64,000 nucleotides of DNA, taken from the NCBI GenBank assembly GCA_024274785.1, contig JAJSAM010000035.1, forward strand, positions 85,613-149,612, written 5' to 3'. This DNA is from Planctomycetota bacterium (GTDB taxonomy: Bacteria > Planctomycetota > JAJSAM01). Under the pieces are notes generated by a model that did no database searches, was not told the DNA's origin, and saw only the letters and a program-made list of their open reading frames with translations. Shown here one piece after another: positions 8,077 to 39,215 of this stretch (position 1 is its first letter; each line of letters begins with the position of its first letter). Made by a program: the position numbers and the translations under genes.

Positions 8077-8082
8077 ACGGAG

Positions 8083-11862: not shown

Positions 11863-12005
11863 TCAGGCGAGCCGATTGCTCGCGTTTCACATAGAGATGG
11901 CCGCTCCCGCGCAAGCGGGGGCGGCCTTCTTCGCTTGCGGGTCCCGACGCCAGATTCCCATTCCACCGGGTAGGATAGCTGCGTCATCGAGTGAGGAGCA
12001 CGGTC

Positions 12006-15868: not shown

Positions 15869-16212
15869 TGCCGGTGTCTCGTCGATCACAGCGCGGTTGA
15901 GGGGAAGCCACGCTTGGAGGGCCGGGCGCCGTCCGGAGCAGACCCAACGCCGCATCAGCTCCGGGAGTTCCGCCTGTGCCTGGCAATCGTTCACCTTTCC
16001 TGGCGCCGGAGAGCATCGGTCGCCCCGGCCCCGGGTCGAGTGCCGCGGAGAATCTGCAAACGCCGCGAGGATCCCGGAGGTCAGTGGCAAAAAGGTCGAT
16101 GGCACAGCCGAGTAGATTCCGGCACCGCCATGGATTTGTCTCGAAATCTCGATAAATCGGAAGTGGCTCATCGCCGGCCGTCCTAAGCTCTTCACCTCTG
16201 AAGGGAGAAACC

Positions 16213-17886
<1,674 letters not shown>

Positions 17887-21767: not shown

Positions 21768-22012
21768 CGAGTCTCTATCGGCTTGCCGATGCTCCGGGCT
21801 GAGCCGATTCCCGCACCTCCCGGGCCAGTTCATTCGATCAGTGGATTGCGGCTGTTGAGATTGAGGTGAGACGAGGCTCGGTGCATTCGCCGGTGGTGAT
21901 GCGCGGACGCTCGGAGGGCGGCGCTCCGGTGGCGGATGAAGAACAAGGCGCCGAAGCCCATGGCTTCGACGCCCTGTGAAAAAACAGCTTGAGGAACGGT
22001 CCGCGGGTCGGG

Positions 22013-22981
22013 CTAGTCGCCGCCCTCGGCCCGGGCCTTCAAGTCCGCCAGTTGCTTCTCCTTCGCTTCGAAGAAACGAGCAGCCTGCGGCTTCTCCCCG
22101 AAGACCGCCTTCATCTTGGCGAGTCCCTTCTCGTAGAGCGCGACATTGTTCGTCTGGAAGGCGTGCTCCATGATCAGGATGTAGAACATCTGGAACGACC
22201 GCGTTTCGCCTTCCGCGGGCTCGCGGCCGTTCGCCATCATCTCCGCGTAGGCTTTGCCGGAAGCCGCGGCAGCTTCGGGGCCGCGGGATTTCGGCGCCAG
22301 GCTCGCGATCTCCATGCCGAGCAGCGCATCGTCGATCTTCGCCTGGTCTTCGTCAGAGACCTCGGTGAGCTTCGCCGCTTCGGCCTTGGCCTGCTCGAAG
22401 TCGTACCTGCCCATGCCGAGCTTGATCAGGAAGAGCTTCGAGGCTTCCGCCGGAGTCAGATCTTCCTTGTTCGCCAGAGCCTGAAAGTCCGCGGCGTCTT
22501 GCATCGTGGCCGCGAAGCCCTCGGTGGTTCTGGGTCCTTTGTGGACGGCGATGACTTCGCCTTCGGCGTCCATTGCCACGAGATATGGAAATCCTGTGCC
22601 GCCTTTTTCCTGAAGGAGCTTACCGTACTTCTCACCCTCCACCCTGCTGGTGATGTGGCAGAAGAGAATGTACTCCTTCGCGAACTCCCTGAACTCCGCT
22701 GTGGAAAGCGCACCGCGCTCCATTTGGATGCAGGGGGGTCAGGGCGTGTAGGTCCGGGTGAAGTACGCGAAGATGAGCTTGCCGCTCTCTTTCGCCTTCT
22801 CCCGGGCCACGTCGTAGTCGTCGATCCAGCCGGCATCGGTGAACCATTCCTCGGCCACCTTGTCCGCTCGGTTCTGCTTCAACGTCTCCTGGCTCGGCGG
22901 GGTTCTGCCCTGCGCCAGAGCCGAAGTCGCGAAGAGAACGGCGATCAGACCGGCCAGGATCACAGTCCTGGCAATCTTCAT
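22013..22981 (-). pseudogene. Secreted thioredoxin-fold protein, interrupted by a 1-nt frameshift (or sequence error) near 22740
   Basis: Signal peptide (MKIARTVILAGLIAVLFATSALAQG) and ...GKLIFAYFTRTYTP* in one frame. Continuation ...DPPCIQMERGALSTAEFREFAKEYILFCHITSRVEG...GFPYLVAMDAEGEVIAV in the adjacent frame. Together they align as a Trx-like fold (xFxAxWCxxC-FSxPEVxxLxxNFVxxKVD pattern) with a non-canonical active site. Confidence 0.45.
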
Positions 22982-23060
22982 ACTGCCTCCTTGATGTGAA
23001 TCGCTGCGATCACGAAGCGAGGAGTATATACGGATGCGGTTCGAAACCTCTGAAACTCAA

Positions 23061-24278
23061 TCACCCGATGCGTCCGTACTCCAGCACCAGGATGCTGACG
23101 TCGTCCTCCGGGCGGCGGCGGCGGCCGAAGGTCTGGACGGCCTCCCAGACGCCATCGGCGGTGTCCTGCACCGATCGTCCGTCGTGGGCGGTCAGCACCT
23201 CAATCAGCCTCTCTTCACCGAAGAACTCTCCGTCCGGGCTTCGGGTGTCGAGGATGCCGTCGGTGTAGAGCACCACCCGGTCGCCGTCGCGGAGCAGGAT
23301 CTCGTCTTCGGTAAAGCCCTGCGCGGCGCCGAGGCCGATGATCGGGCCGTGGTGGGAGAGAGGCGAAACCGATCCGTCCGCCTCGATCAGGATCGGCGGT
23401 GGATGGCCGGCGCAGGCGTAGGTGAACTTCCCCTCGCCGAGTTCGAGAGTAGCGCACGCGATGGTCATGTAGCTGCCGAACCGCTCGAACGGGAATGCGG
23501 CCTCCAGGCTGTTCAACACGCTTGCCGGAGCACGCACGCCGCCGCCCCGGCCCATGATGCCCTGCCGGGAGAGCAGGAACTGGGACGCGGTGGTGGCCAT
23601 GAACGCGGCCGAGACGCCGTGCCCGCAGACATCGAGCATGTACAGGCCGAGTCGTTCGTGGTCGGGGCAGTGGAAGTTGAAGAAGTCGCCGCCGATCTGC
23701 CCGGAGGGGCGGAATCGCCAGGCGAGTCGCACGGAGTCGAGGTCGAGGCGGTCCTTCGGCAGGAGATTTCGCTGGATGCCGGCCGCGGCGGCCAGGTCGT
23801 CGTTGATCTGACGGCTCTTTCTCTCGAGCTCTTCCCGCTGGGTGACCTCTCCGGTGACGTCGTGGATGATCACCAGCACCATGTCCCGGCCCTTGAAGGC
23901 GAGCTTGCGGGTGCTGAGTTCGAGGTGCCGGGTGCTGGCCTGGCCCCCTCGGAAGAACTCCCGGGTGAGTGGCTGCCTGTCCACCGGAACGTCCTTCGTG
24001 AGCGTCTCGACGAGGGTTTGCCGGAGCACGCAGTTTCCGCAGTGGGTCGTCTCCCCGCACGGCCGTCCCTCCTCGCCGTGGTATCGGCAGCGCATGGCTT
24101 CGCCGAACCGGGTTTCGGTGGGATCGCGCTGGGGACTGTCGAAGAGGTCGAGGAACGATCGGTTGAAGCGGTGGATGCGCCCGCCCCCGTCGGCGATCAG
24201 CACCGCGGCGGTGATGTTGTCGAGGAGGAGGTTCAGGAAGTCGTTCGACTCGTGCAGGTCTTCGAGATCCGTGAACAT
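23061..24278 (-). CDS. PP2C-type Ser/Thr phosphatase (SpoIIE/RsbU-like) with N-terminal Cys-rich PAS-like sensor
   Basis: 405 aa. C-terminal PPM motifs (GGDFFNF...LGLYMLDVCGHGVSAAFM...LYTDGILD). N-terminal HGEEGRPCGETTHCGNC. Confidence 0.8.
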   Translation of the reverse strand: MFTDLEDLHESNDFLNLLLDNITAAVLIADGGGRIHRFNRSFLDLFDSPQRDPTETRFGEAMRCRYHGEEGRPCGETTHCGNCVLRQTLVETLTKDVPVDRQPLTREFFRGGQASTRHLELSTRKLAFKGRDMVLVIIHDVTGEVTQREELERKSRQINDDLAAAAGIQRNLLPKDRLDLDSVRLAWRFRPSGQIGGDFFNFHCPDHERLGLYMLDVCGHGVSAAFMATTASQFLLSRQGIMGRGGGVRAPASVLNSLEAAFPFERFGSYMTIACATLELGEGKFTYACAGHPPPILIEADGSVSPLSHHGPIIGLGAAQGFTEDEILLRDGDRVVLYTDGILDTRSPDGEFFGEERLIEVLTAHDGRSVQDTADGVWEAVQTFGRRRRPEDDVSILVLEYGRIG

Positions 24279-24492
24279 GACGGGCCAAGGTTACCATCCA
24301 GAGCCGGGGAACCGGCATCGCCCCCCGGGCGGGGCTCGCCCGGCCGACAAGCAACCCGACGCGCACTGTTACCTCTCGAGCAGGCAAAGCCACTCCCCTG
24401 AAGCAGGTGGAAACGGTGGCGGTCTCCTGCGAGACTGCTCTGTGGCTGAGCCGGATGGACTTGCGGAGGGAAGGGATGGGAGGATCCTGGAA

Positions 24493-27400
24493 GTGCCACT
24501 GACCAAGAAGTTGCTCTTCGACCTCGAGATCGACCGGAGGGGAGGGATTCGGCAGATCGGTGCGGTGCTCGACCGGGTGGAGTTCTATCGTGAGGTGTCC
24601 GGTAGCCCCGGGGCGGCGCTCGCGGAGTTGGATGCCTTCGCCCGGGGGGCGGCGTGCGTGCTCGGGCACAACGTCCTCGCGCACGATCTCCCGCATCTTC
24701 TGCGGGTGGCGCCGAACCTTCGGCTTCTGAAGCTGCCGGTGGTCGATACCCTTTTTCTCTCCCCTCTGGCCTTTCCCGAGAACCCCTATCACAGCCTGGT
24801 GAAGGACTACAAGCTGCTCTCCGCCTCGCTGAACGACCCCGTGGCGGATGCGCGGCTCGCCGGTCGGGCATTCTCCGAGCAATGGGAGGCCCTGGCCCTT
24901 GTCGCGACGGGTACTCCTCCGCTCATGGATCTCCTGCAGTTCTGTTTCCAGGGCGTCTCCTTCGTGGAGGGCGGCAGCGGGGACGGCATCGCCCGGGTCT
25001 TCTGCTCCCTCGCTGGCAGGCAGCCCCACGACGCGATCAATGCCGACAAAGCACATCAGATCTTCGCCGACCAGGCGCGGGATCTGTGTTGCCGGAGTGC
25101 GATCAACGAAGTTGGACGGGAGCTGATCGACGACGCCGTCCGGCGGCCCGAACTCGCCTTCATCGCCAGTTGGCTCCGGGTGGCCGGTGCGAAGTCGGTG
25201 TTACCGTCGTGGGTGCGGCATCGGTTCCCCGGTATCCGGACTGCCATCCACCGACTTCGCGATGCTCCCTGCGGCAACTCGGAGTGTTGCTACTGCAAGG
25301 GCACCCAGGATCCCGAGGAGCAGCTGAGACGGTTCTTCAAGTTCGACGGCTTCCGCTTGACCGGGGGCAAGCCGCTCCAACGGAAGATTGTGCTTGCGGG
25401 AATGCGCAACGAATCGCTGGTCGCCCTTCTGCCCACCGGTGGAGGCAAGTCCCTCAGCTTTCAACTCCCCGCCCTCGTGCGATACGTCCGACGCGGTGCG
25501 CTGACCGTCGTGATCTCGCCGCTGCAGGCGCTGATGAAGGACCAGGTGGAAGGTCTCGTCAAACGAACCGGCTCGCCCCACGCCGGTGCGATCTACGGGA
25601 TGCTCACCCCTCCTGAACGCCGCGAGCAACTTGAGCGCATCCGGCTCGGGGACACCGCGATCGTCTACGTCTCCCCGGAACAACTGCGCAACCGTTCGTT
25701 CCGGCAGACCATCCTCTCCCGAGAGATCGGTTGCTTCGTCTTCGATGAAGCCCACTGCATTTCGAAGTGGGGCCACGACTTCCGGCCGGACTACTTCTAT
25801 GCTTCCCGCTTCGTCCGTGAACTGGCCTCCGAGCAGGGCACGGAGATCCCGCCCGTGGCCTGTTTCACCGCCACGGGAAAACCGGACGTGATCGAGGAGA
25901 TCAAGGACCACTTCCGCACCGTCCTCGGCCACGAACTGGAGGAGTTCCGGGGACCCATCGCCCGTGAGGAGCTCGTCTACTCGGTGCGGGACACCACCGG
26001 GCCGCAGAAACTCGAGCAGGTGGCCGGCGTGCTTCGCGAGAAGCTCTTTTCGAACGGAGGTGGCGCGGGGATCGTGTACCGGGCCACCCGGAAGCGGACG
26101 GAGGAGACCGCCGAGTACCTGAAGAAGCGCGGGATCGTCGCCCGGGCGTTCCACGCCGGTCTCCGGGCGCCGACGAAACGCGAAGTCCAGGACGAGTTTC
26201 TCGCGGGAAAGGTGCCGGTGATCTGCGCCACCAACGCATTCGGCATGGGGATCGACAAGTCCGATGTCCGGGTGGTGGTGCATGCGGACATCCCGAGGTC
26301 GATCGAGAGTTACCTGCAGGAGGCTGGCCGCGCCGGCCGCGACCGCAAGCGGGCCGACTGCATCCTGCTCTTTGATGAGCACGACGTCGAGACGCAGTTC
26401 CGCCTGGCAGCTTTCGGAAAGATCACCCGGCACGATATCGTGCAGATCCGCCGCGCCGTGAAACGTGCCACTGATCGGCAGAAGGGGGCGGCCGTGATCA
26501 CTACCGGGGAGCTTCTGCGGGATCAGTATCTTGAGACTTCCATCGACGCGGAGGATCGCTCCGCGGACACCAAGGTAAAGATGGCGCTGTCCTGGCTCGA
26601 GCGGGCCGGATTCCTCGAGCGTAACGAGAACCGAACGACTGTTTTCCAGGGTGTGCCCCGGGTGAAGGACCTGGAGGAGGCCCGGTTGAAGATCAGCAGC
26701 AAGCAGGTTCCGGAGCAGACGGCGAGGCGGTGGATCGCCGTCCTCGAAGCGCTCCTCAACGCCGACCCGGATCAGGCGTTGACCTTTGACCAACTCGCGG
26801 GGCACCGGGCCTACGAGCATTTCTGGGCGACCTGTGACGGCACGATCGTGACCCGCCAGGTCCGCAAGGATCTCCATGAGATGGCTGAGGTCGGGCTGAT
26901 CGACCAGGGGCTCGTCTTCAGTGCGTTCGTCCGTCCCAGAGGGCAGAGGACTTCGAAGCGTCTCTTCGAGCAGGCGAGGGATAGCGAGGTCAGTCTGCTC
27001 GACCTGATCAGGAAGACCGCTCCCGACGCGGAACAGGGACAGTGGCAACTCCTCGAATTAAACAAGCTGCATCAGAGGCTCAAGTCCGGTGATACCGACT
27101 GCAGTCCGGAATCGATCCGGCTCCTCCTGAAGAGCTTGAGCATGGATGGGCGGGGCCTGGCCGGGAGCGGAGGCAGCCTGGAACTGGCGCAGACCTCACG
27201 GTTTCGCTATCGCGTGAAGGTCTCCCGAAAGTGGGACGCCCTCGAGGCGACCGCGAAGATCCGCCGTGAGGTCGCGTGGAAGGCACTGGCGGTGATGCTT
27301 GAAAAAGCGAAGCACGTTGGGGAGGAGGAGCAGCTCGTCTCGTTCACCGCGGCAGAGGTCGTGGCGGCAATTCACAAGGATCCCGCACTCGCCCGCAAGG

Positions 27401-29676
27401 TGAAGAGCCCCTTGGATGCCGTCGACCGCGGGCTGATGTTTCTCCACGAGCAGGGTTCGATCATCCTGCGCCAGGGCCTTGCGGTGTTCCGGCAGGCCAT
27501 GACCATCGAACTCTCGAAGGAGATGAGGGGGAGAACCTACTCGAAGAAGCACTACGACGCCCTCGATCGCCATTACGGAGAGCGCGTCGCGCAGGTCCAT
27601 GCCATGAACGAGTACGCCCGCCTGGCGCTGAAAGAACAGCGGGCGGCCGATCGATTCGTCAACGACTGCTTCAGCCTTGAGCGCGATGCGTTCTTCACGA
27701 AGTACTTCGGGGATCGGCAGGAGGTGCTGCGTCGGGCGACGGGGGTTGAGTCCTACCACCGGATCGTCACCGGGCTCGAGAACGACCACCAGATCGAGGT
27801 GGTGACCGCTCCCCTCGAGGGGAACATGCTGGTCCTGGCGGGACCGGGTTCCGGCAAGACCCGCGTGGTGGTGCACCGCTGCGCCTTCCTGCTCAGAGTT
27901 CAGAGAGTGCGTCCGGAGGAAGTGCTGATCCTCTGCTTCAATCACAACGCCGCGGTGGAGCTCCGAAAGAGGCTTGGCGACCTGATCGGCATGGACGCGC
28001 GAGGTGTCACCGCGCTGACCTACCACGGCCTGGCCATGCGGATCACCGGGACCTCGTTTGCGGAAAGGGCGGAATGCGATCAGGACGGGGAGATCAAGTT
28101 CGATGAGATCCTGCAGGACGCGGTGCGGCTGATCCGGGGGGATGTCGAGATCCCCGGGATCGAGCCCGACCAGGTGCGGGAGCGCCTGCTGGCCGGGTAC
28201 CGCTACCTGCTGGTGGACGAGTATCAGGATATCGACGAAGTGCAGTACGAGTTGGTCTCGGCGATCGCCGGCCGAACAGAGCAGGACGGGGAGAACAGAC
28301 TCCGGATTCTCGCGGTGGGGGACGACGACCAGAACATCTACACCTGGCGCGGCGCGGACGTGAGCTTCCTTCGGCGGTTCGAGGAGGACTATCAGGCCAG
28401 ACGGTTCCGACTGCTCCACAACTACCGCTCCTCGAAGAACATCATCGAAGTGTCCAACCGCTTCATCGCCACGAACCCTGGTCGCTTGAAAGTTTCCGAT
28501 CCCATCCGGGTCAACGAGCAGCGGGTGCTCTACGCGGCGGGGGGGCGCTGGGAGGGCCTGGATCCGGTCTCGCGGGGCCGGGTGAGGCAGATCATCATTT
28601 CGAGTCCGGCGGAAGAGGCTTCGGCGATCGTGGCAGAACTGCGTCGGGTGAAGGAGTTGGACTCCAATACCTCCTGGCATGAATTCGCCGTCCTGGCCCG
28701 GACCCGGAATACCCTGCAGCCGATCCGGTCGCTCCTCACGCACTACGGGATCCCCGTCTCGCTGGTGGTGCCGCGCGAGCAGGCCCCGCCCCTCAACCGC
28801 ATCCGCGAGATCGAGACATTGCTCAATTCGCTGAGGGAGAAGGCGGAGCAGAGTGTCCGGCCGACGGAGCTGCTGAAAGATGTCCACCGCGATCTCAAGA
28901 TGCGGCCCGGGCACTACTGGCTCGACCTCCTTCGCGAACTGCTGACGGCGTTCAAGGAGGAAACCTCGAACGCGGATCAGCCCCGCGGCCATGCGGTGGA
29001 GTATCTGTACGAGGCCCTCGTGCAGCGGCGCCGCGAGAGCCGGATCGGCGCGGGTGTCTACCTCGGGACCGTGCACTCGGCCAAGGGGATGGAGTTTCAG
29101 CACGTGATCATCCCCGCGACCGGTTGGGCGGAGTTGCGGGAAGATGCCACCGTGGGCGAGGAGCGCCGGACCTTCTATGTCGGCATGACTCGCGCGAGGG
29201 AGATGCTGACCGTGATCCACTGCCCCGGACTGTCTCCGTCCCACGTCGGACTGGTGGATGGCAAGGAGATCCTGTCCACCGGGCCGGCGGAGCAAGCGGC
29301 GGTGCCCGAGGGGATCCTCACGCGCCGGTACGAGGCCCTCGGCCTTTCCGACCTCTTCATCGACCTCGCCGGGCAGCGGGCCGCGTCGGACCCCATACAC
29401 AACGCGCTGATGCACCTGGATTGCGGATCGAGACTCACCGTGCGGGAGCAGTCCGGGAACGTGGTGCTCCTCGATGGGGGTGGATGCCCGGTCGCCAGGC
29501 TTTCGGCCTCGGCGAAGGAGCGCTGGCTGGCCCGGCTTCGGGATGTCGAATCAGTGTGCGTGCTGGCGATGATCAAGCGGCGACGTGGGGACACCGGTGA
29601 GGAGTACGAGGACCGCATGCGCGTCGATGCGTGGGAAGTCCCGTTCTGCGAGCTGATCTACCGGGAGCAGTGCTGA
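24493..29676 (+). CDS. Three-module DNA helicase/nuclease: DnaQ-like 3'-5' exonuclease, RecQ-family helicase, long linker, UvrD/PcrA-family helicase (1727 aa)
   Basis: Exo I motif (LLFDLEID) at N-terminus. RecQ motifs (LLPTGGGKSLSFQLPAL, VVISPLQALMKDQV, FVFDEAHCISKWGHDFRPDY, ATNAFGMGIDKSDVRVVVH, QEAGRAGRD). UvrD motifs (LVLAGPGSGKTRVVVHRCAFLL, LLVDEYQDIDEVQYELV, VGDDDQNIYTWRGADV, HNYRSSKNIIE, GTVHSAKGMEFQHVII, VGMTRAREML). GTG start at 24493 preceded by GGGAGGA RBS. The track ORF extends upstream without support. Confidence 0.85.
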   Translation: MPLTKKLLFDLEIDRRGGIRQIGAVLDRVEFYREVSGSPGAALAELDAFARGAACVLGHNVLAHDLPHLLRVAPNLRLLKLPVVDTLFLSPLAFPENPYHSLVKDYKLLSASLNDPVADARLAGRAFSEQWEALALVATGTPPLMDLLQFCFQGVSFVEGGSGDGIARVFCSLAGRQPHDAINADKAHQIFADQARDLCCRSAINEVGRELIDDAVRRPELAFIASWLRVAGAKSVLPSWVRHRFPGIRTAIHRLRDAPCGNSECCYCKGTQDPEEQLRRFFKFDGFRLTGGKPLQRKIVLAGMRNESLVALLPTGGGKSLSFQLPALVRYVRRGALTVVISPLQALMKDQVEGLVKRTGSPHAGAIYGMLTPPERREQLERIRLGDTAIVYVSPEQLRNRSFRQTILSREIGCFVFDEAHCISKWGHDFRPDYFYASRFVRELASEQGTEIPPVACFTATGKPDVIEEIKDHFRTVLGHELEEFRGPIAREELVYSVRDTTGPQKLEQVAGVLREKLFSNGGGAGIVYRATRKRTEETAEYLKKRGIVARAFHAGLRAPTKREVQDEFLAGKVPVICATNAFGMGIDKSDVRVVVHADIPRSIESYLQEAGRAGRDRKRADCILLFDEHDVETQFRLAAFGKITRHDIVQIRRAVKRATDRQKGAAVITTGELLRDQYLETSIDAEDRSADTKVKMALSWLERAGFLERNENRTTVFQGVPRVKDLEEARLKISSKQVPEQTARRWIAVLEALLNADPDQALTFDQLAGHRAYEHFWATCDGTIVTRQVRKDLHEMAEVGLIDQGLVFSAFVRPRGQRTSKRLFEQARDSEVSLLDLIRKTAPDAEQGQWQLLELNKLHQRLKSGDTDCSPESIRLLLKSLSMDGRGLAGSGGSLELAQTSRFRYRVKVSRKWDALEATAKIRREVAWKALAVMLEKAKHVGEEEQLVSFTAAEVVAAIHKDPALARKVKSPLDAVDRGLMFLHEQGSIILRQGLAVFRQAMTIELSKEMRGRTYSKKHYDALDRHYGERVAQVHAMNEYARLALKEQRAADRFVNDCFSLERDAFFTKYFGDRQEVLRRATGVESYHRIVTGLENDHQIEVVTAPLEGNMLVLAGPGSGKTRVVVHRCAFLLRVQRVRPEEVLILCFNHNAAVELRKRLGDLIGMDARGVTALTYHGLAMRITGTSFAERAECDQDGEIKFDEILQDAVRLIRGDVEIPGIEPDQVRERLLAGYRYLLVDEYQDIDEVQYELVSAIAGRTEQDGENRLRILAVGDDDQNIYTWRGADVSFLRRFEEDYQARRFRLLHNYRSSKNIIEVSNRFIATNPGRLKVSDPIRVNEQRVLYAAGGRWEGLDPVSRGRVRQIIISSPAEEASAIVAELRRVKELDSNTSWHEFAVLARTRNTLQPIRSLLTHYGIPVSLVVPREQAPPLNRIREIETLLNSLREKAEQSVRPTELLKDVHRDLKMRPGHYWLDLLRELLTAFKEETSNADQPRGHAVEYLYEALVQRRRESRIGAGVYLGTVHSAKGMEFQHVIIPATGWAELREDATVGEERRTFYVGMTRAREMLTVIHCPGLSPSHVGLVDGKEILSTGPAEQAAVPEGILTRRYEALGLSDLFIDLAGQRAASDPIHNALMHLDCGSRLTVREQSGNVVLLDGGGCPVARLSASAKERWLARLRDVESVCVLAMIKRRRGDTGEEYEDRMRVDAWEVPFCELIYREQC

Positions 29677-29751
29677 GTTCACCCTGATCCCATTCCTTCG
29701 GGTTCTGCCCAATCGAAAGGCTCCCGCTCATCAGGGCGTTCCGGGGAGCGA

Positions 29752-30675
29752 CTACGATCCCTTCGGAACGGCGGGCCGTGCCTGAACCACCCTCGGCTGG
29801 GTGTCCTTACCAAGTTGGACCAGTACGTTCGCGCTATCTGGCAGGATGTCGACCGTGGGGCGGGCCGAGAGCAGTTCCTCCGCCTCCAGGACTTCGAGCA
29901 CCGCGCCGAGCAGCTCGGGATCTTCCCCGGAGATCTCGTTCAGGGCGCGGCCGACGACCGTGGGGCGTGTCGAGTTCGCCTCGGCCATGGTCTGCGAGAC
30001 CTTGTTGGCCGTTTCGCTCCGGATCAGGCCCACGCGGTTCTCACCATCCTGCTTCATCGCACTCGTGACCTGCACCAGGCGCTTTACCACCTTTTCGGTG
30101 ATGTTTCTCACCATCTGTACGTCGGTGAAGAAGACCTTGCGGATGTAGACCGACCCCAGCCGATAGCCCCACTTCTCGGACATCGGCGATACGGCCCGGC
30201 GCACCGTGCGACTCAGGCTGTGGCGGTCCTCCAGCATCTTGTCCATCTCGAGGTTGCTGAGCGTGGAGATCGCCGAACTGGCCACGTTCGCCTGGAGCGA
30301 CCCTTCGGGATTGGTGTTGATGAACAGGTAGGCGACCGGGTCGTTGACCTGCATCTCGTACCAGATGCCGACTCCCATGGGTGTGCCTTCCTCGGAGTTG
30401 ATCATCTGGCCGCGCAGGTAGTGCTGCCGGAGCGCGGTGCGCACCATCTGCCGCTTTCCGAAGAATGGCAGCAGGAGGGCGCGGGGTCCGAACTCGACGA
30501 TGGGAAAGCCTATGCCGGGTTCGTCCATGGTGCCGATGACCTTGCCGAACAGGGTGAAGACCATCGCCCTGCACTCGGGAATGATGGCGTAGAGCCCCAG
30601 GCCACGGGAGATCGCGAGCACGAGCGGGATGGTGGCCAGACCGACGACCGCAGCGACGATGCATTCAGGTTTCAT
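29752..30675 (-). CDS. SPFH/band-7 (stomatin/HflK/C-like) domain protein
   Basis: N-terminal TM then SPFH-like core. RBS GGAGGA before ATG at MKPECIV. Confidence 0.75.
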   Translation of the reverse strand: MKPECIVAAVVGLATIPLVLAISRGLGLYAIIPECRAMVFTLFGKVIGTMDEPGIGFPIVEFGPRALLLPFFGKRQMVRTALRQHYLRGQMINSEEGTPMGVGIWYEMQVNDPVAYLFINTNPEGSLQANVASSAISTLSNLEMDKMLEDRHSLSRTVRRAVSPMSEKWGYRLGSVYIRKVFFTDVQMVRNITEKVVKRLVQVTSAMKQDGENRVGLIRSETANKVSQTMAEANSTRPTVVGRALNEISGEDPELLGAVLEVLEAEELLSARPTVDILPDSANVLVQLGKDTQPRVVQARPAVPKGS

Positions 30676-30700
30676 GATCCAATCCTCCACTGGTTCGGTC

Positions 30701-31690
30701 TCAGGAGTCCTCGGAGACGAGAATCAACCGCCGGGTTCGCGCGAGCAGCGGAACCCGCATGTTGCGGATGTAGGCCACGAGTGCCTCTTTGCCTCCCGCC
30801 GCCTTGATGGTCCGTAGCGAAGTCGCCAGTTCCCGCAAGGGGGCGACCTCGGCCTCCGCGTTGTTGATCGCGATCTCGATGGCTCGCTTGCTCATCGTGA
30901 TCTGTTGCTCGGAGTCGGCCCGGGCCGTGCTGATATCCGCCGCCACCTGGTTGCGCGTGCTGTTGATCGCCGAGAGGGCCCGATCGACATCCTCCGGCGG
31001 ATCGATCGTCGTGATCAGGGCCGCATCGAGTTCGATCCCGTAGCGCCCCGCGGTCGAAGCGCACTGTTGTTCCATGAAGGTGTTCAGCGTCGGGAGGTTA
31101 TTTCGAAGGTCGTTGATCGAGACTCCCTCGGAGAGTCCGACGGCAGATCCCGTGGGGTCCGCTTCGATCTCGGTGTCGTCGATCAGGCTCGGGCCTCTCG
31201 GATCGACGAAATTGGCGATCCGCTCTCGAAGCACGGAGACGAAATAGCCCATCACGTGCTCCAGCGGGCTGACAACTCCGAACAGGTAGGGGTAGAGGTT
31301 GTCCTCGCAGACCCGGAAGCGGATCTGCCCATTGACCCCGATGGTCAGGTTGTCCTTGGTGACCGCCTCGACCGTCGACTGGTCCTTGGTCGGGTCCCAG
31401 GCGAGATCGACCGCCTGCGTCGCGACGCTCACCTTGTGGACCTGCTGCCACGGCCACTTGAAGTAGGGGCCACCGGGACCGATCACGCGCACCGCCGGGT
31501 ATTGGTAGCGTTCGTGCTCCTCCTCGCTCATGGGCGGTCCGGCGGACTCCTGAAGCGGAAGCCGATCGGCGCGGCCGAAACTCGTGAGCACCGCACGCTG
31601 GTCGGGGCGAACGGTATAGAAGCCGGTCATGAGCACGCGGATCACGGCAAAGACGCCGAGTCCGGACAGGAAGAAAATGGCCATCGTCAT
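30701..31690 (-). CDS. SPFH/band-7 domain protein (second paralogue)
   Basis: TM (MAIFFLSGLGVFAVIRVLMTGF) then SPFH-like region with coiled-coil tail. RBS GGAGGG before ATG. Confidence 0.75.
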   Translation of the reverse strand: MTMAIFFLSGLGVFAVIRVLMTGFYTVRPDQRAVLTSFGRADRLPLQESAGPPMSEEEHERYQYPAVRVIGPGGPYFKWPWQQVHKVSVATQAVDLAWDPTKDQSTVEAVTKDNLTIGVNGQIRFRVCEDNLYPYLFGVVSPLEHVMGYFVSVLRERIANFVDPRGPSLIDDTEIEADPTGSAVGLSEGVSINDLRNNLPTLNTFMEQQCASTAGRYGIELDAALITTIDPPEDVDRALSAINSTRNQVAADISTARADSEQQITMSKRAIEIAINNAEAEVAPLRELATSLRTIKAAGGKEALVAYIRNMRVPLLARTRRLILVSEDS

Positions 31691-31844
31691 CGTTCTACCC
31701 TCCGTTACCTGCAACACTGCCGGTTGTTGCGAATCGTCAGCCTACACGGCGCGTCGCCTTGCGCAAGGCGCGATACGCTTTGAATAGCCACCTTGGCAGG
31801 AGCGTACACTGGGGAGCATCCATCCTGCTGAGATCTAGGAAGCC

Positions 31845-32330
31845 ATGCTCTACCGCGTCAAGGAGAAGTTCTGGTCCTGGGGAAACGACTTTTCGATCAC
31901 GGACGCCGACGGCAAACCCTGCTTCCTGGTCGACGGCGCCGCGTTCTCCTGGGGCGACGACCTTTCGGTGCAGGATCCCGACGGGCGCGAGCTGGCCCGG
32001 ATCACTCAGAAGCTGTTCTCCTTCATGCCTCGCTACCGCATCTACATCGGTGGAGAGTTTTTCGCGGAGGTCATCAAGGAGTGGACCTGGTTCAAGAAGA
32101 ACTTCACTCTGGATGTTCCGGGCCCGAACGATTACGCGATCGAGGGCTCGTTCTGGGAGCACGAGTTCGAGTTCGTGCGCGGCCGCCACGTGGTCGCTCG
32201 AGTGAGCAAGGACTACTGGAACTGGACGGACAGCTACGGCGTTTCGATCGAGGAAGGCGAAGACGACATCTCGATCATCTGCGCCTGCATCGTCATCGAC
32301 CAGGTCCTGCACGACGACAAGAACGACTGA
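31845..32330 (+). CDS. LURP-one-related (LOR/DUF567) tubby-C-terminal-like protein
   Basis: 161 aa. MLYRVKEKFWSWGNDFSITDADGKPCFLVDG...YRIYIGGEFFAEVIKEWTWFKKNFTLD: typical LOR/scramblase-like beta-barrel pattern. Confidence 0.6.
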   Translation: MLYRVKEKFWSWGNDFSITDADGKPCFLVDGAAFSWGDDLSVQDPDGRELARITQKLFSFMPRYRIYIGGEFFAEVIKEWTWFKKNFTLDVPGPNDYAIEGSFWEHEFEFVRGRHVVARVSKDYWNWTDSYGVSIEEGEDDISIICACIVIDQVLHDDKND

Positions 32331-32350
32331 TCACGTTACTCCGCCCCTGT

Positions 32351-32379
32351 GCAATCTGAATTCCACATATTCAGATTGC
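32351..32379 (+). terminator. Perfect 11-bp AT-rich inverted repeat (hairpin) downstream of the LOR gene
   Basis: GCAATCTGAAT-tccacat-ATTCAGATTGC. No U-tract follows. Lies at the left edge of the lower-GC island. Confidence 0.3.
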
Positions 32380-32389
32380 GGAGAGCCAT

Positions 32390-32497
32390 CATCAAATCGC
32401 CGTGCACGCCGCCGTCACAGAAATACATCTGACGCTCCCGGACCGCCAGCACGGTCGCCCAGAGATCGACCCTCCATTGCGGCTGGGCCGCGCTGTG
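32390..32497 (-). repeat. Dispersed intergenic repeat, copy D (reverse orientation)
   Basis: Reverse complement of ...gccagcacggtcgcccagagatcgaccctccattgcggctgggccgcgctgtg matches copies A-C, including the tail (gtcacagaaatacatctgacgctcccggaccgcc vs rc of copy A). Confidence 0.8.
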
Positions 32498-32623
32498 GCG
32501 GTAGGAATCTGATCACGGCGAGCTTCACCCGGTCGGTCCCAACTCCGGGTCTTGGTCGCATCCATACGATCGCTTGACACGGTCCCATGCTGTGCTCCAA
32601 TGAGAGATGAGAGGAGCATTGGG

Positions 32624-33649
32624 ATGAGTGTCGGACCGAGGGTGCCTCCGGAAGTTTGCGGACTTCTCCGGGCGATCGAATGTTCTCTGGCCGGGAACGA
32701 GACGTACCTTGATGCCTGGTACCGAACGAAGCGTGTAAGCCTCGGGCGTACGCTCTATTCCTGGACGAGAAAAAGCCAATCTGCAGATGAGATCCTTCAG
32801 GCCATCCTGATCGCTGCGCTGCACGCGTCACGCGCGCGGACCACCGTGAAAAACGAGGCGGGGTGGATGTCTCGCGTCGCCGCGAATACCCTCGCAGACA
32901 TCAGGCGCGAGGATCGCCTTCGCAGATGCCAGTCCCATGAATTGTGCGACCTGCCCGATGAATCGAGTCTGGCCGACCCTTTCCGGGTCATCGCCGCAAA
33001 GGACGCCTTGTGCCGTATGATCATCATTGCCGCAACTTTCGGATCACCGGAGCGCGAAGCACTTCTGCTTCGTCTCAAATACCGTTGGGACCAGGGAGAG
33101 ATCGACCTATGGCTCACGAACTGGCTCGGGATAGGCAAAGACCGGGCTCGCAAGATCAGACGGAGTGGCCGGAAACTGCTGCGGAAGGTGGTTTCCGGCA
33201 AGTGCGCTGGGCGGGTTGGTCCTCGGCACAGAGTTTTGACGCCCCCCCCCCCCGTTTTCCTGACTAATACTACAGTCAAGCCGCGACCTCATGAAACGCC
33301 GAAGTCTCGGCAGATCGCAGAGGCCGCAAACCAAAGGAGGAAGGGATGGGAGTCTCCGTCAAGTCTGTATTGCTCGCCGCATTGCTCTACGTGTGCATCT
33401 TTGCGCTCGCCCAGCAGGTTGAGGCGACGGAATGCACCGGGGTTGGGCAAAACCGCAAGAGTTCCTTGGACCAATTCGGCAGTTGTCCCTCCAACGAAGA
33501 CTGGTGCTGCACCTTTGCACGCTTCGAGGGCCTCGGTGTCCCGGACAGTGCGAGTTGCGACCCGGTGGAGCGGTCAGCGACTCTGGATAATCCTGATCCC
33601 AACCAGAACAGCATTGACCCGATGCTTTCCAACGAGGTACCTACCGTGA
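32624..33649 (+). CDS. Divergent ECF-like sigma-70 family protein; true 3' end uncertain (C12 tract at 33242-33253)
   Basis: Strong RBS (GAGGAG) before ATG 32624. Region-2-like (ADEILQAILIAALHASRAR) and region-4-like (SPEREALLLRLKYRWDQGEIDLWLTNWLGIGKDRARKIRRSGRKLLRKV) segments. Several Cys (CGLLRAIEC, CQSHELC). After the polyC (PPPP) the frame runs a further about 130 codons overlapping the next gene and looks non-coding. A tract of C11 or C13 would terminate within 5 codons. Confidence 0.5.
   Translation: MSVGPRVPPEVCGLLRAIECSLAGNETYLDAWYRTKRVSLGRTLYSWTRKSQSADEILQAILIAALHASRARTTVKNEAGWMSRVAANTLADIRREDRLRRCQSHELCDLPDESSLADPFRVIAAKDALCRMIIIAATFGSPEREALLLRLKYRWDQGEIDLWLTNWLGIGKDRARKIRRSGRKLLRKVVSGKCAGRVGPRHRVLTPPPPVFLTNTTVKPRPHETPKSRQIAEAANQRRKGWESPSSLYCSPHCSTCASLRSPSRLRRRNAPGLGKTARVPWTNSAVVPPTKTGAAPLHASRASVSRTVRVATRWSGQRLWIILIPTRTALTRCFPTRYLP
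33242..33253. repeat. C12 homopolymeric tract inside the 3' end of the ECF-like sigma ORF
   Basis: gaCCCCCCCCCCCCgttttcc read directly in the sequence. Confidence 0.9.
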
Positions 33650-33798
33650 TTACACACTACGGTTCAGGGATCGGCCACCAGTGGGTCGTTAAGGTGTGCG
33701 GACCGGCGGGAATCCCAGTCCACATCACCGTTTCGTTCCGCAATTCGTTCGGACTATCGACAGCCTCTTGGGCGATCATTATTAAACCAGAGTGCTGA
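33346..33798 (+). CDS. Secreted cysteine-rich small protein (150 aa)
   Basis: Strong RBS (AAAGGAGGAAGGGATG). Signal peptide (MGVSVKSVLLAALLYVCIFALAQQVEA). Mature part has 8 Cys (TECTG...GSCPSNEDWCCTFARF...SCDP...VCGP...PEC). Lower-GC region. Confidence 0.65.
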   Translation: MGVSVKSVLLAALLYVCIFALAQQVEATECTGVGQNRKSSLDQFGSCPSNEDWCCTFARFEGLGVPDSASCDPVERSATLDNPDPNQNSIDPMLSNEVPTVITHYGSGIGHQWVVKVCGPAGIPVHITVSFRNSFGLSTASWAIIIKPEC

Positions 33799-33864
33799 GC
33801 ATTTTCATGGCGATTGAAGATGTGCCATTCCCCGGCCATTTGCATTCCCGGAAGGTCGCCTCAA

Positions 33865-36339
33865 ATGACGAATTCGAGATGGCTGCTATTGGTGATCTCA
33901 ATCGCCATAGTTTGCGCGGCAGTTGGCGCACTATCCGTCGATAATGAAGCCAAACCGCCGCACCAGGTGGTCGAAAGCTACGCCTCGTCTGAGGTCAAGG
34001 AACTCCCAACTGTCGAGAGGGCGCAGGCTGCAAATGGCGTGGGGATTGATGTCCAGCCACCACTGCAGCACGGCGAAGAAATCAAGGCAACCTGGCTGAT
34101 CGGGGGTGTAGATCGCCAGGTTGCCGCAGTGCCCTCTGTTGCTGGGCTGGATCACATCGATCTACCGTATCCTTCAGAAACGCCAGAGTCGCTGACTCTC
34201 GCGCGGGATGGATTCGCTTCCGCCCGGATCGATCACACGGTGAACGGTGGGCGGTACGCTGTTGAGTTCGTACGCTGCGGTTCGGCGTTGGTCTGCGTAG
34301 AATCCACCACTGGAGCATACGACCCGGAAACTGCCGCCGTTCGCCTCGAGTGCAATGGCCTTCGCCATTCCCCGGTTGAACAGCATGGTGGGGAGTTCAG
34401 GTTTGAAGATCTGTCTCCCGGTCGATATGGGGTCGATCTCGACCCGGACGGTTCTGGCTTCATCACTTTCGGGTATCTCCCCGTTAACGCAGGACAGCCA
34501 TCGAGATTCGGCATCGACCTCCGGGGGCAGTCTGACATTGCCGGGCGGATCCTCATGCACGGTAGACCGCTTGCGGATTCCAGCGCGCTTACCGTGAGGA
34601 TGACGGAAGCTCAACTGAAGGTGGCAAGGCCCCAGTATGTACTCCCCGTGAATCCGGATGGGTCGTTTCAGGGCCAGGTGCGGCGGGGCGACTACTCGGT
34701 CACGGTGGTGAGAGGCGAGCAACTGGTCGGGACTTTCGCCTGGATGGTGTCAACCAGGGAGGAGAGCCGGGACTTTGACCTGGCGGAGGTTCTCCGGGTC
34801 TCGGGGCGAATTCTGGATGCCGAGGGGCAAACACTTCCGAACGTGGACCTGGTCTTCGCGGAGCCCCGAGAGGGTGGAGGAGTTCACAGCTGTCGGAGCG
34901 ATGATTCGGGCGAGTTCAGAGCACTTCTTCCCGCTGGAGTGCGCCACAGTGTTCAGATTCGGGGGAAGTCTTTCGGAGTGATGACCCTGGGTTCCATCAC
35001 TCTCACCGAGGACACGACGATCGACTTTCAGATTCCATGCGGAAGCAAGGTGCATGGCCGGATTTCTTCCGCAAATGGTGAACCTCTGGCCGGTGTCATC
35101 ATCAGTCTGATGAACTGGCGGGTGCGTACGGGAGATTCTGGTGAGTTCGAGATTGCGGATGTGCCCGCCGGTCGATTCAAGATCTACGCCTACAGACAAC
35201 CTGGCAACATTCTCATCAATTTCAGTGATCTGATTGTAGTGGGTGGGGAAGACCTTTGGTTGGAACTCGTGGAGGATCTTCCCCCAGCGGGGTTTGTCGC
35301 CGGGAAGGTGGTTTCTGCCGACGGAAAGCCGATATCGGGTATCCGAGTTCAGGCCGCGGGTGTCGCCGGCGGGCTGACCGGATGCATCACGAAGCGCGAC
35401 GGGAAGTTCAAGTTCAAGGTTCACGGTGATGTGGTCAATGTGTGGGCAAATGGCCCGGAGGAGAAGGGGCTTTGCAGGGCGGTGGCCAAGGTACCGCTCG
35501 GGACTCAGGATATCGTTCTGGTTCTCCTGGCCCCGGTCGAGTTGAAATTCGTGTTCATGCTGGATCAGAAGCGATTCTTGGGCCCGATTGACGGTCTGTT
35601 GGCGCTCAAGGATGAGAGTGGTAAGTCAACTGCGTTGGGAGTGGGCTCATCTGCGAGGGCCATGGAACGTTTCCGGCGCATACCCGCAGGTCGCTATAGG
35701 ATGATGTTCCTGTTCAGTCAGTCATTTGCGAACACCGACTGGTTCGAGGTCGACCTCCGGGAGAGTCAACGCTCGGAGGTGCAGGTTGAACTGGTGGCCG
35801 GTTCGCAGCCTGCGCTTGATTTCGATTCGCCATTCTCCGGCAGGTTCGCCGTGCGGTCCGGAGATGGGCGGATTGTGTACGCCGTGGATCTGCTCAACGC
35901 CAGGTCATCATTCCGGATTGGCCGGATCCTCCCGGCCGGGAGCTACGAGGTGCTTGCGTTCTCCCGATACGGTGAGGTTGCAGTGGGTCAGCTCGAGGTT
36001 CTCGCCGACCACTCTGAACCGGTCTCCTGGGAGGTCTTTCGGGGCAGTATCCAGATCAAGGTGATGGATGCGGCCGGGAACCCCGTGGTCGGTCGGCGGA
36101 TCCGGGTCTGTGCGGCTGAGAACTGCCGGGACGTGCCCCTGGGCATCGCTGTGGAGAAGTTGCAGATGGGCTCCGTCCTTACGGAGCGACAAGCACTGAC
36201 CGACGATGGAGGACGATGTTGTTTCGCGGGGCTGCTTCCGGCGAGCTACGTCCTTACCGGCCATGGAGGAGATGCGGTAACCGTCATCGTTGGCGAGGGA
36301 GATGCCAGCCACCCTGCGGTACTCCTCACATGCGAATGA
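33865..36339 (+). CDS. N-terminally anchored 824-aa protein made of carboxypeptidase-regulatory-like (CarbopepD_reg/Ig-like) beta-sandwich repeats
   Basis: TM/signal anchor (WLLLVISIAIVCAAVGALSV). Repeated about 80-90-aa units with G-x-hydrophobic motifs, e.g. GRISSANGEPLAGVIISLMNWRVRTGDSGEFEIADVPAGRFKIYA and GKVVSADGKPISGIRVQAAG...DGKFKFKV. ATG 33865 has GGAAGG RBS. The track ORF start at 33814 is TTG. Confidence 0.65.
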   Translation: MTNSRWLLLVISIAIVCAAVGALSVDNEAKPPHQVVESYASSEVKELPTVERAQAANGVGIDVQPPLQHGEEIKATWLIGGVDRQVAAVPSVAGLDHIDLPYPSETPESLTLARDGFASARIDHTVNGGRYAVEFVRCGSALVCVESTTGAYDPETAAVRLECNGLRHSPVEQHGGEFRFEDLSPGRYGVDLDPDGSGFITFGYLPVNAGQPSRFGIDLRGQSDIAGRILMHGRPLADSSALTVRMTEAQLKVARPQYVLPVNPDGSFQGQVRRGDYSVTVVRGEQLVGTFAWMVSTREESRDFDLAEVLRVSGRILDAEGQTLPNVDLVFAEPREGGGVHSCRSDDSGEFRALLPAGVRHSVQIRGKSFGVMTLGSITLTEDTTIDFQIPCGSKVHGRISSANGEPLAGVIISLMNWRVRTGDSGEFEIADVPAGRFKIYAYRQPGNILINFSDLIVVGGEDLWLELVEDLPPAGFVAGKVVSADGKPISGIRVQAAGVAGGLTGCITKRDGKFKFKVHGDVVNVWANGPEEKGLCRAVAKVPLGTQDIVLVLLAPVELKFVFMLDQKRFLGPIDGLLALKDESGKSTALGVGSSARAMERFRRIPAGRYRMMFLFSQSFANTDWFEVDLRESQRSEVQVELVAGSQPALDFDSPFSGRFAVRSGDGRIVYAVDLLNARSSFRIGRILPAGSYEVLAFSRYGEVAVGQLEVLADHSEPVSWEVFRGSIQIKVMDAAGNPVVGRRIRVCAAENCRDVPLGIAVEKLQMGSVLTERQALTDDGGRCCFAGLLPASYVLTGHGGDAVTVIVGEGDASHPAVLLTCE

Positions 36340-36788
36340 GCAGGAGCATCCACCTGGCGATTTCGTTGACCCAGAGAGTGGTTGGAGTCCTTCTGATCTA
36401 CTCGGGTGTCGCCAAGACGGTCCTGCCGGAAGCCAGGTGTGGATTCGGCGCGGTCGTCCGCTCGCTCAATCTTCCGGACTCCATGCGGGCCGTGCTGCAG
36501 AGCGGACTCGGGCCCCTCGAGGTTGCCGTCGGGATCTGCCTGCTGGTCGGTTTCCTGCGCAAGGTCCATCTGAGTGTGAGCGTCTGCCTCATGGCCGCCT
36601 TCGTGGGCGCTACTGCCATGCAGAGCGCTTCGGGCTTCCAGGACAGGGCGTGCGGGTGCGGGCTGGGCATTGCGGTGAGTGTCGGCGCAGCTCTGGTACG
36701 CAACTCGATCCTGCTTGCGCTACTCTGCGGCTGCCTGCTGCACGAGTTCTGGGCGGGGAGGTCTCCGGTGCAGCTTTCAGGATCTTGA
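36330..36788 (+). CDS. MauE/DoxX-family membrane protein
   Basis: About 150 aa, 4 predicted TM. LTQRVVGVLLIYSGVAKTVLPE matches the MauE/DoxX N-terminal helix pattern. Overlaps the stop of the upstream gene (ATGA at 36336). Confidence 0.55.
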   Translation: MRMSRSIHLAISLTQRVVGVLLIYSGVAKTVLPEARCGFGAVVRSLNLPDSMRAVLQSGLGPLEVAVGICLLVGFLRKVHLSVSVCLMAAFVGATAMQSASGFQDRACGCGLGIAVSVGAALVRNSILLALLCGCLLHEFWAGRSPVQLSGS

Positions 36789-36813
36789 GGAGGCGCTTGA
36801 CGGACCTGGCCAC

Positions 36814-37716
36814 TCAGGCCGACATTTTCGCCATCATCGCTTCGAAGTTCTCATCCACACCGCGCTGGATTTCGGCGATGGCCTCTTCGTCGCCGATGAC
36901 GTGCTTGAAGCGCGACTGGTACTTGAGGTACTCCCCGATCGGCTTGCGCTTGCTGACCTTCTTCGTCACCTTGCGGACGCCGTCGACCATCTCGTAGAGG
37001 ACGATGCAGCCGGTGGTGACCGCCAGCTTCGCGACCTTGACGATGTCCCTGGTGTCGATCCCCCAACCCGTCGGGCAGGGGCTGTGGCAGTGGATGTAGC
37101 TCGGGCCCCGGACCGCCGCGGCCTTCTGTACCTTCTCCATCAGGTCGAGGGGGTAGCCGATGGAGGCCGACGCGGCGTAGGGGATGTGGTGGGCGGCGAC
37201 GATCTCCACCATGTCCTTCTTGAGTTCAGGGGGGCGGTCCTCGCCTTTGGTCACCGAGCCGATCGGCGTCGTGGAGGTGCGGGCGCCGAAGGAAGTGGTG
37301 CCGCTCCGCTGCCCTCCGGTGTTCATGTAGGACTCGTTGTCGTAGCAGAGGTAGATGAAGTCCTGGTTGCGCTCGATGGCGCCGGAGAGCGACGACAATC
37401 CGATGTCCGCGGTTCCGCCATCGCCCGCGACCACGAGCAGGTTCATGTCCTCGCGTTTGCCCATCGCTTTCAGGGCGTCGTCGATGCCGGAGATCACCGC
37501 CGGCGCGTTCTCGAAGAGCACGTGGAAGTGAGGGACCTTCGGAACCCCCATCTGCATCACCACCGCCAGGCAGCCGGTGGCGTTGATGACGATGGTGTTT
37601 TTCCCGAGCACCTTCAGGGTGTGCCGGAAGCCGAGCATCTCCGGGCAGCCGGCGCAGGCGAGGTTGCCGAGGGAGAGGTGCTCTTCTCGCGAGACGTCTT
37701 TGAGTTTCATGGCCAT
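36814..37716 (-). CDS. porB: 2-oxoacid (pyruvate):ferredoxin oxidoreductase beta subunit (TPP-binding)
   Basis: GNLACAGCPE...VVAGDGGTADIGLSSL...ESYMNTGGQRS: TPP-binding PorB signature. Start MAMKLKDV. The track ORF upstream extension looks non-coding. Confidence 0.85.
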   Translation of the reverse strand: MAMKLKDVSREEHLSLGNLACAGCPEMLGFRHTLKVLGKNTIVINATGCLAVVMQMGVPKVPHFHVLFENAPAVISGIDDALKAMGKREDMNLLVVAGDGGTADIGLSSLSGAIERNQDFIYLCYDNESYMNTGGQRSGTTSFGARTSTTPIGSVTKGEDRPPELKKDMVEIVAAHHIPYAASASIGYPLDLMEKVQKAAAVRGPSYIHCHSPCPTGWGIDTRDIVKVAKLAVTTGCIVLYEMVDGVRKVTKKVSKRKPIGEYLKYQSRFKHVIGDEEAIAEIQRGVDENFEAMMAKMSA

Positions 37717-39211: not shown

Positions 39212-39215
39212 GCCG

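Follow-up and report, generated by a model that had tools for sequence, protein, structure and literature searches.

A 64,000-nucleotide stretch of DNA from a Planctomycetota bacterium (contig JAJSAM010000035.1, positions 85,613 to 149,612 of the forward strand; hereafter the window, in whose own numbering positions are given) carries a long gene whose product was predicted, from the letters alone, to combine a DnaQ-like exonuclease, a RecQ helicase and a UvrD helicase. What kind of enzyme would place a nuclease and two motors of different helicase superfamilies in one chain, and on which DNA would it act? Our analysis indicates that the gene is real and that its product consists, from the N to the C terminus, of a DEDD-fold exonuclease domain, a four-cysteine helical domain, a RecQ-type superfamily 2 (SF2) motor, a region of ~455 amino acids (aa), a UvrD-type superfamily 1A (SF1A) motor and a HIRAN-like domain (Table 1). 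Three of these parts, namely the four-cysteine domain, the conserved middle region and the HIRAN-like C-terminus, had previously gone unnoticed.

One gene encoding an exonuclease fold and two helicase motors

The maximal open frame ending at 29676 reaches back to 23842. Its first 217 codons overlap the PAS-SpoIIE gene of the opposite strand and resemble non-coding translation, and the start is the GTG at 24493, which follows a Shine-Dalgarno-like sequence. The product is 100% identical to a protein of the public collections (P0001), and more than 100 full-length homologues (E = 0), 1710-1830 aa in length, share a common start position. Homology of this extent rules out a chance open reading frame (ORF), and an assembly or fusion artefact was likewise rejected; the exonuclease, RecQ and UvrD modules lie on a single polypeptide, as originally predicted. 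Long antisense ORFs also lie inside the gene on the minus strand (25201-27048, 615 aa, and 27196-29415, 739 aa) and are a by-product of its 65% G+C. A shorter one of ~90 aa recurs ~1.3 kb into the gene in 7 loci (L002, L006, L010, L011, L018, L021 and L035) and is most simply explained as a shadow of the conserved RecQ coding sequence, not a gene. Promoter and terminator scans gave counts no higher than in shuffled sequence.

The domain scan confirmed both sets of helicase motifs as parts of real helicase domains, with Pfam scores well above the cut-offs. In the RecQ part it recovered DEAD (aa 294-468) and Helicase_C (aa 516-617), and in the UvrD part UvrD-helicase/AAA_19 (aa 1103-1301) and UvrD_C (aa 1455-1577), the latter part scoring 148 bits for PF00580, 83 bits for PF13361 and 85 bits for PF13245. 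The RecQ core carries the motif 0 residues F282, R288 and Q296, motifs I (PTGGGKS), II (DEAH) and III (FTAT), the aromatic-rich loop SKWGHDFRPDY, and motifs V (ATNAFGMGIDK) and VI (QEAGRAGRD). It passed the NCBIfam model recQ_fam (TIGR00614, 279 bits against a cut-off of 219.8), and its best matches among solved structures were RecQ, RECQ5 and BLM (E 1e-53 to 3e-60). The UvrD core likewise presents a Q motif, motifs I (AGPGSGKT), Ia, II (DEYQD), III (GDDDQNIY) and IV (NYRS), V/Va (TVHSAKGMEF) and VI (VGMTRAR). This second motor matches SF1A models only (UvrD, PcrA, Rep, helicase IV, RecB and AddA), with no significant SF1B match.

Neither motor belongs to a named equivalog. The RecQ models failed (TIGR01389, 319 bits against 640; PRK11057, 235 against 1015; model positions 4-339 of 591 only), as did those of the UvrD family (uvrD, 183 bits against 1144; pcrA, 176 against 911; rep, 168 against 951). 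The RQC, RecQ_Zn_bind and HRDC Pfam models gave no match (HRDC at E up to 5) and no cysteine cluster follows RecQ motif VI in the sequence, so the canonical RQC zinc site is absent. Matches in PDB span either aa 276-647 or aa 1097-1577 and never both, so that no solved structure was found with the two motors together.

Conservation was assessed in 76 full-length representatives of 50%-identity clusters, which are 33-47% identical to the window protein. The Walker A lysines K319 and K1122, both DExx boxes, the motif VI arginines, the RecQ aromatic-rich loop and the UvrD motifs III and IV are invariant in all 76, and because the catalytic residues do not vary both motors are very likely active. 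RecQ helicases and SF1A helicases of the UvrD/Rep/PcrA/RecB type both translocate in the 3'-to-5' direction, and the same polarity would be expected of the UvrD-type motor from its family membership. The dual-polarity machine suggested at first is therefore not supported.

The N-terminal domain gave no Pfam or PDB match as a single sequence, and RNase_T and DNA_pol_A_exo1 were silent even at E up to 5. The acids of the DEDD fold are nevertheless in place: the sequence shows Exo I (D10-x-E12) and Exo II (H59-N60...D65) as well as the Exo III aspartate (D119), and D10, E12, D65 and D119 are kept in 72-75 of the 76 representatives, the exceptions being mostly N-terminal gaps. In a profile search the D-L-E-T and G-H-N...D motifs aligned to a solved 196-aa exonuclease, with a weak E of 0.07. 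An AlphaFold2 model from a 20-sequence alignment (mean predicted local distance difference test score, pLDDT, 90.5) returned exonuclease domains as its leading Foldseek matches in PDB, those of S. aureus DinG (9ii8, the best), E. coli Pol II, T7 polymerase, TREX1 and Rrp6, with weak E-values of 0.015-0.6. The original statement that the motif sets (Exo I, RecQ Ia-VI and UvrD I-VI) are intact stands; the canonical Exo III histidine is lacking. The alignment argues that all three enzymatic modules are under strong purifying selection.

Conserved parts outside the catalytic modules

The all-helical domain that precedes RecQ motif 0 contains four cysteines (C200, C260, C265 and C268), each kept in 75-76 of the 76 representatives, and it is presumed to bind zinc.

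The two motors had been described as separated by a linker of about 550 aa. The gap is shorter, about 455-490 aa, and its sequence is about as conserved as the remainder of the protein, so it is not a linker. Neither as a single sequence nor as a profile did this middle region match Pfam or PDB, including the RQC, RecQ zinc-binding and HRDC models. An exhaustive comparison of its profile with 1.84 billion cluster representatives gave 1115 matches at E <= 0.001, 810 of them at E <= 1e-10 and 368 (clusters at 50% identity) at E <= 1e-30. Among the best 150 of the 1115, which were inspected, full-length proteins (1700-1900 aa) hold the region at ~aa 640-1110 and shorter matches resemble fragments; judged by these matches, the region is found only in this architecture. 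Segments of ~95 aa within it align weakly and in register (hhalign 64% for segments 1 and 2, then 17% and 10%), and the region probably consists of tandem ~95-aa repeats. A winged-helix-like pattern in each segment can only be inferred.

The C-terminus gave no Pfam or PDB match as a single sequence or as a profile, and a word-indexed protein search with its profile returned two fragments only. Its AlphaFold2 model (mean pLDDT 89.9) is beta-rich, and Foldseek matched it in PDB to lp_0118 (3k2y), Rad5, the HLTF HIRAN domain and part of HamB (E 0.015-0.5). For 3k2y, Rad5 and HLTF the match probability was 0.9-1.0, but with E-values of 0.015-0.3 and TM-scores of ~0.35-0.6. In BFVD the matches were phage proteins (E 3e-4 to 0.03), one of which is named "HIRAN domain" (E 0.028). 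We assign the domain as HIRAN-like with moderate confidence, on the strength of its modelled fold. HIRAN domains bind DNA 3'-OH ends, and by analogy the C-terminal domain is a probable binder of DNA 3' ends.

Table 1. Features of the helicase gene, its product and the surrounding locus (positions in the window)
Feature	Position	Strand	Basis or remark
Helicase gene	24493-29676	+	1727 codons and stop; more than 100 full-length homologues
Shine-Dalgarno-like GGGAGG	24478-24483	+	9 nt before the GTG start; read from the sequence
DEDD (DnaQ-like) 3'-5' exonuclease fold, aa 1-135	24493-24897	+	Motifs, weak profile match, predicted fold
All-helical four-cysteine domain, aa 140-275	24910-25317	+	Predicted secondary structure; just before RecQ motif 0
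RecQ-type SF2 core, aa 276-640	25318-26412	+	Motifs 0-VI and aromatic-rich loop; Pfam, NCBIfam and PDB matches
Family-specific middle region, aa 641-1095 (~455 aa)	26413-27777	+	Profile search; no Pfam or PDB match
UvrD/Rep/PcrA-type SF1A core, aa 1096-1580	27778-29232	+	Q motif, motifs I-VI; Pfam, NCBIfam and PDB matches
Beta-rich HIRAN-like domain, C-terminal, aa 1605-1727	29305-29673	+	Predicted fold; putative DNA 3'-end binder
Segment without counterpart in the close relative	24270-36821 (12.5 kb)		blastn of the relative's contig L093 against the window
PAS-SpoIIE gene	23061-24278	-	Divergent from the helicase gene, 214 bp away
Two tandem SPFH/Band 7 genes	29752-30690 and 30701-31717	-	Converge on the helicase gene

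Distribution of the family and the window locus

Full-length members occur in Desulfobacterota, Alpha- and Gammaproteobacteria, Acidobacteriota, Chloroflexota, Actinomycetota, Verrucomicrobiota, Bacteroidota and candidate phyla. The family is large and horizontally scattered, patchy across phyla and constant in architecture, and no partner gene is obligatory. Full-length copies are present in 20 plasmid records, all annotated as "RecQ family ATP-dependent DNA helicase", the sole name that the family bears in databases, and no copy was found in phage records. An all-against-all comparison of flanking ORFs from 32 loci revealed no conserved partner gene, its top cluster being an artefact formed by an antisense ORF within the helicase gene. 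A minority of the 112 immediate neighbours collected from 31 loci are defence or mobility candidates: a HamB-like helicase, PDC-S37/Hhe, HmaC, a type I restriction enzyme, McrBC, PDC-S01, PDC-M21A/B, PbeA, two integrases and two transposases.

Individual copies illustrate this minority. On plasmid pALVIN01 of A. vinosum the helicase gene adjoins hsdRMS (a type I restriction-modification system) and an HNH nuclease gene, on the Thiothrix plasmid pTfr153 a type I-D CRISPR locus lies 4 kb from the family gene, and on C. sphaeroides plasmid p.A toxin-antitoxin modules are nearby. In Geopsychrobacter electrodiphilus (L001 1-10014) five co-directional genes, the last overlapping the helicase start by 14 nt, encode an N6/N4 methyltransferase, a 582-aa protein, a 1027-aa SMC/AAA_15-like ATPase, a 693-aa UvrD helicase and a DUF429 protein (PADLOC PDC-S44), a block that looks like an uncharacterised defence cassette; downstream at this locus stand a gene for an Apyc1-like (anti-Pycsar) beta-lactamase-fold protein and a resolvase gene. 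In Ca. Vecturithrix granuli a 1510-aa HamB-like helicase (L002 15310-19839) directly follows the RecQ-UvrD gene, the two being inserted between ispD and ispF with no obvious adjacent HamA. Very large defence-candidate genes lie immediately upstream on the common strand in Tritonibacter scottomollicae (L020 3966-9854; PDC-S37/Hhe, 1200 bits) and in L026 (6431-9766; HmaC, 1187 bits), and family members may repeatedly have been transferred together with other giant helicase or ATPase genes. The closest relative of the window helicase, 57% identical, has ScoMcrA-like HNH genes 6-8 kb away. Several hosts are cultured and tractable, namely Allochromatium vinosum DSM 180 (pALVIN01), Cereibacter sphaeroides, Rhizobium leguminosarum and Geopsychrobacter electrodiphilus.

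In the window lineage the helicase gene is accessory. Contig L093 of a close relative runs collinear with the window (72-86% nucleotide identity); by blastn, its positions 7830-9023 correspond to window 23076-24269 and 9031-12109 to window 36822-39899 (82-83% identity). These flanks are contiguous in L093, where the PAS-SpoIIE gene joins the TPP/POR oxidoreductase genes directly, and window 24270-36821 is therefore missing in the relative. The segment contains the helicase gene, the two SPFH genes, unassigned ORFs and an 841-aa protein with CarboxypepD_reg repeats. Its insertion in the window lineage is favoured because the two flanking genes of L093 share 4 nt, an overlap typical of a native operon. 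The nearest homologue of the helicase is only 57% identical, whereas EttA (16213-17886) of this uncultured bacterium has metagenomic relatives at 89-91% identity and is 76% identical to a protein of a Planctomycetes metagenome-assembled genome.

The nearest neighbours fit the original prediction in position only in part. The divergent PAS-PP2C phosphatase gene lies where expected; the SPFH genes are indeed adjacent downstream, but being on the minus strand they are convergent and not co-transcribed with the helicase gene. A functional link to either was rejected, since no neighbour is conserved across the 32 loci, and both are incidental. The SPFH pair and a further 191-aa ORF without Pfam match (29752-32312 in all, minus strand) resemble an operon of the SPFH-NfeD type. 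The G+C content falls over 30-36 kb, to 58-59% at 32000-36000 against 64-69% elsewhere, a stretch with the gene for the 841-aa protein (33814-36339) and a 365-aa ORF without Pfam match (32552-33649). Two smaller stretches of the window also have no counterpart in L093: 13586-16202, with an ORF at 13636-14967 and a sigma-70-family gene at 15336-16214, and 21809-23076, with a 336-aa ORF at 21989-22999 that has no Pfam match. Small insertions and deletions make this neighbourhood a patchwork. In the relative, an AbiEii-like (toxin) gene lies just beyond the POR operon (L093 12209-12829).

Proposed function and comparison with known systems

We tentatively propose, at a little less than an even chance, that the protein is a stand-alone accessory enzyme that unwinds and degrades DNA at 3' ends or forks, that its likeliest targets are phage or plasmid DNA, and that it acts as a one-protein defence enzyme. 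A 3'-directed machine is suggested because HIRAN domains, both motor families and DEDD nucleases, which digest from the 3' end, are all 3'-directed, and foreign DNA is favoured as target because the distribution of the gene is accessory and island-associated. The C-terminal domain would capture a free 3' end, for instance that of the nascent leading strand at a fork, the end of a rolling-circle or linear genome, or a nick. The UvrD motor would then load on the strand whose 3' end was captured, and the RecQ motor would engage the other arm, such as the template of the lagging strand. In this arrangement a pair of 3'-to-5' motors would travel alike in space, leaving the junction behind and peeling off the two nascent strands while the exonuclease trims the released 3' end, so that replication or recombination intermediates would be dismantled and degraded.

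A stronger version, which we regard as unlikely though worth stating, makes the family a class of single-protein enzymes for immunity or against plasmids that had not been recognised before, in which HIRAN-like recognition of 3' ends or forks, strand stripping by two motors of the same polarity and destruction by a non-canonical DEDD nuclease are united; if true, it would bring a mechanistically new coupling of two motors in one chain. The idea of a nucleic-acid defence component was already part of the original prediction. The gene context makes a role against foreign DNA plausible, with defence neighbours at a minority of copies.

Several observations weigh against the defence proposal. No integrase, tRNA gene or att-like flanking repeats were found at the 12.5-kb segment, and no defence or mobility gene lies within ~10 kb of the window gene. 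Across loci the 112 immediate neighbours are mostly ordinary metabolic or regulatory genes, the apparent enrichment in defence neighbours, a raw tally, is suggestive, and no PADLOC model covers the whole protein. Within the protein, the fifth catalytic residue of Exo III, whether His (H-x4-D) or Tyr (Y-x3-D), is absent, and the middle 455 aa match no Pfam or PDB entry. Both the DEDD and the HIRAN assignments draw on weak Foldseek E-values (at least 0.015 against PDB), and the Pfam HIRAN model (PF08797) and the HIRAN sequence signature found no match in 17 members at E up to 1. Finally, the geometry of motor cooperation sketched above is pure conjecture.

The main rival is a host genome-maintenance enzyme, acting in reversal or restart of stalled forks or as an anti-recombinase and having no defence role; it would unite in a single chain the separate activities of RecQ, UvrD and a 3' exonuclease. 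HLTF and Rad5, which bear HIRAN domains, act at forks and in repair, as do RecQ and UvrD, housekeeping genes make up most of the neighbours across loci, the window locus is free of defence genes, and the 32-locus comparison uncovered no toxin or partner gene. Against such an enzyme speak a patchy distribution at 33-50% identity across unrelated phyla, plasmid copies beside restriction-modification and CRISPR systems, the absence of the gene from a close relative whose flanks are 77-85% identical in nucleotides, and the copy that, along with a HamB-like gene, is inserted between ispD and ispF. We consider this explanation improbable, if still a serious one.

While the defence proposal takes the N-terminal domain to be a working nuclease, this domain may instead be an altered module for binding ends or metals, which would leave the protein a double helicase only. 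The position 5 residues before D119 (N114 here), which holds the general-base histidine in DEDDh nucleases, is N in 57 representatives and otherwise S, P or others, but never H, and the silence of the two Pfam exonuclease models points the same way. On the other side, the four metal-ligand acids are essentially invariant, which would be unusual in a dead nuclease, the nearest fold is the exonuclease domain of S. aureus DinG, and H100 (75 of 76), Y99 (72 of 76) and H59 (76 of 76) are conserved nearby and could supply the missing base; H100 in particular might replace the canonical one. From these residues the nuclease is probably active but non-canonical, and its loss seems to us rather improbable.

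A bipolar machine of the RecBCD kind, with motors of opposite polarity on the two strands of a DNA end, is very improbable. Two motors and a nuclease give a superficial resemblance to RecBCD or AddAB, but the second motor is of the 3'-to-5' SF1A type without a significant SF1B match, RecQ has the same polarity, and Pfam searches detected no PD-(D/E)xK nuclease domain; two motors of the same polarity cannot both leave a blunt end, and the model therefore fails. Least probable of all is a component of a named system, namely DpdF of the 7-deazaguanine Dpd cluster, the PsyrT toxin or Gabija GajB. PADLOC models of all three match the RecQ or UvrD parts strongly (E 1e-105 to 1e-50), but over the helicase cores and over parts of the models only. 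NCBIfam DpdF (NF041063) has a cut-off of 550 bits, of which the protein reaches 199.5. The window gene has no dpd, psyrA or gajA partner beside it, and the comparison of 32 loci showed no recurrent neighbour family.

Repair and immunity depend centrally on helicase-nucleases such as RecBCD, AddAB, WRN, Cas3, Hachiman and Gabija, and as far as we found none of those known pairs an SF2 RecQ and an SF1A UvrD motor in one polypeptide. A literature search yielded no paper describing the exonuclease-RecQ-UvrD arrangement or characterising the family, in line with the original view that this is not a described repair enzyme; in the preprint of Millman et al. 2022 the words RecQ and HIRAN occur in the reference list only. 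The protein blends features of WRN or S. aureus DinG, of RecBCD or AddAB, of HLTF or Rad5 and of helicase-based defence systems, but belongs to none of these groups.

Against human and Xenopus WRN the likeness lies in a DEDD-superfamily exonuclease placed N-terminal to a RecQ motor, and the RecQ cores align at E ~1e-43. WRN, however, has an RNase D/DEDDy exonuclease, RQC and HRDC, whereas the window protein adds an SF1A motor and a HIRAN-like domain and matched none of the RQC, RecQ zinc-binding, HRDC or RNase D-type models. With the fifth catalytic residue also missing, the comparison with WRN made at the outset does not extend beyond analogy, and the exonuclease-RecQ fusion most likely arose independently. 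DinG of the S. aureus type offers a bacterial DEDD exonuclease N-terminal to a helicase, but that helicase is XPD-like and a single motor, with neither a UvrD module nor a HIRAN-like domain.

RecBCD and AddAB share with the window protein two motors and a nuclease in the service of DNA-end processing, and its UvrD motor is related to RecB and AddA. They are multi-subunit enzymes with both motors of SF1 and a PD-(D/E)xK nuclease, the polarities of RecBCD being opposite and one AddAB motor inactive, whereas here SF2 and SF1A motors of like predicted polarity are joined with a DEDD nuclease in one chain. HLTF and Rad5 join a HIRAN-type fold to an ATP-driven DNA motor, and the HLTF HIRAN domain holds the nascent 3' end, driving fork remodelling. 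The likeness of the window protein to them is one of predicted fold. They are Snf2-type double-strand translocases with a RING domain and an N-terminal HIRAN, unlike the C-terminal domain here, for which the Pfam model is silent.

The helicase-based defence systems Hachiman HamAB, Gabija GajAB, Nhi, Hna and Hhe are likewise large accessory helicase and nuclease proteins, which act on DNA ends or replication intermediates; Nhi, Hna and Hhe are single-protein helicase-nucleases. The UvrD part of the window protein matches GajB models and its C-terminal domain weakly resembles part of HamB, but it has no separate nuclease partner gene, and we know of no two-superfamily motor pair in any of these systems. 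Cooperation of two same-polarity motors and a role in defence, if borne out, would broaden helicase mechanics as well as the list of one-gene defence systems.

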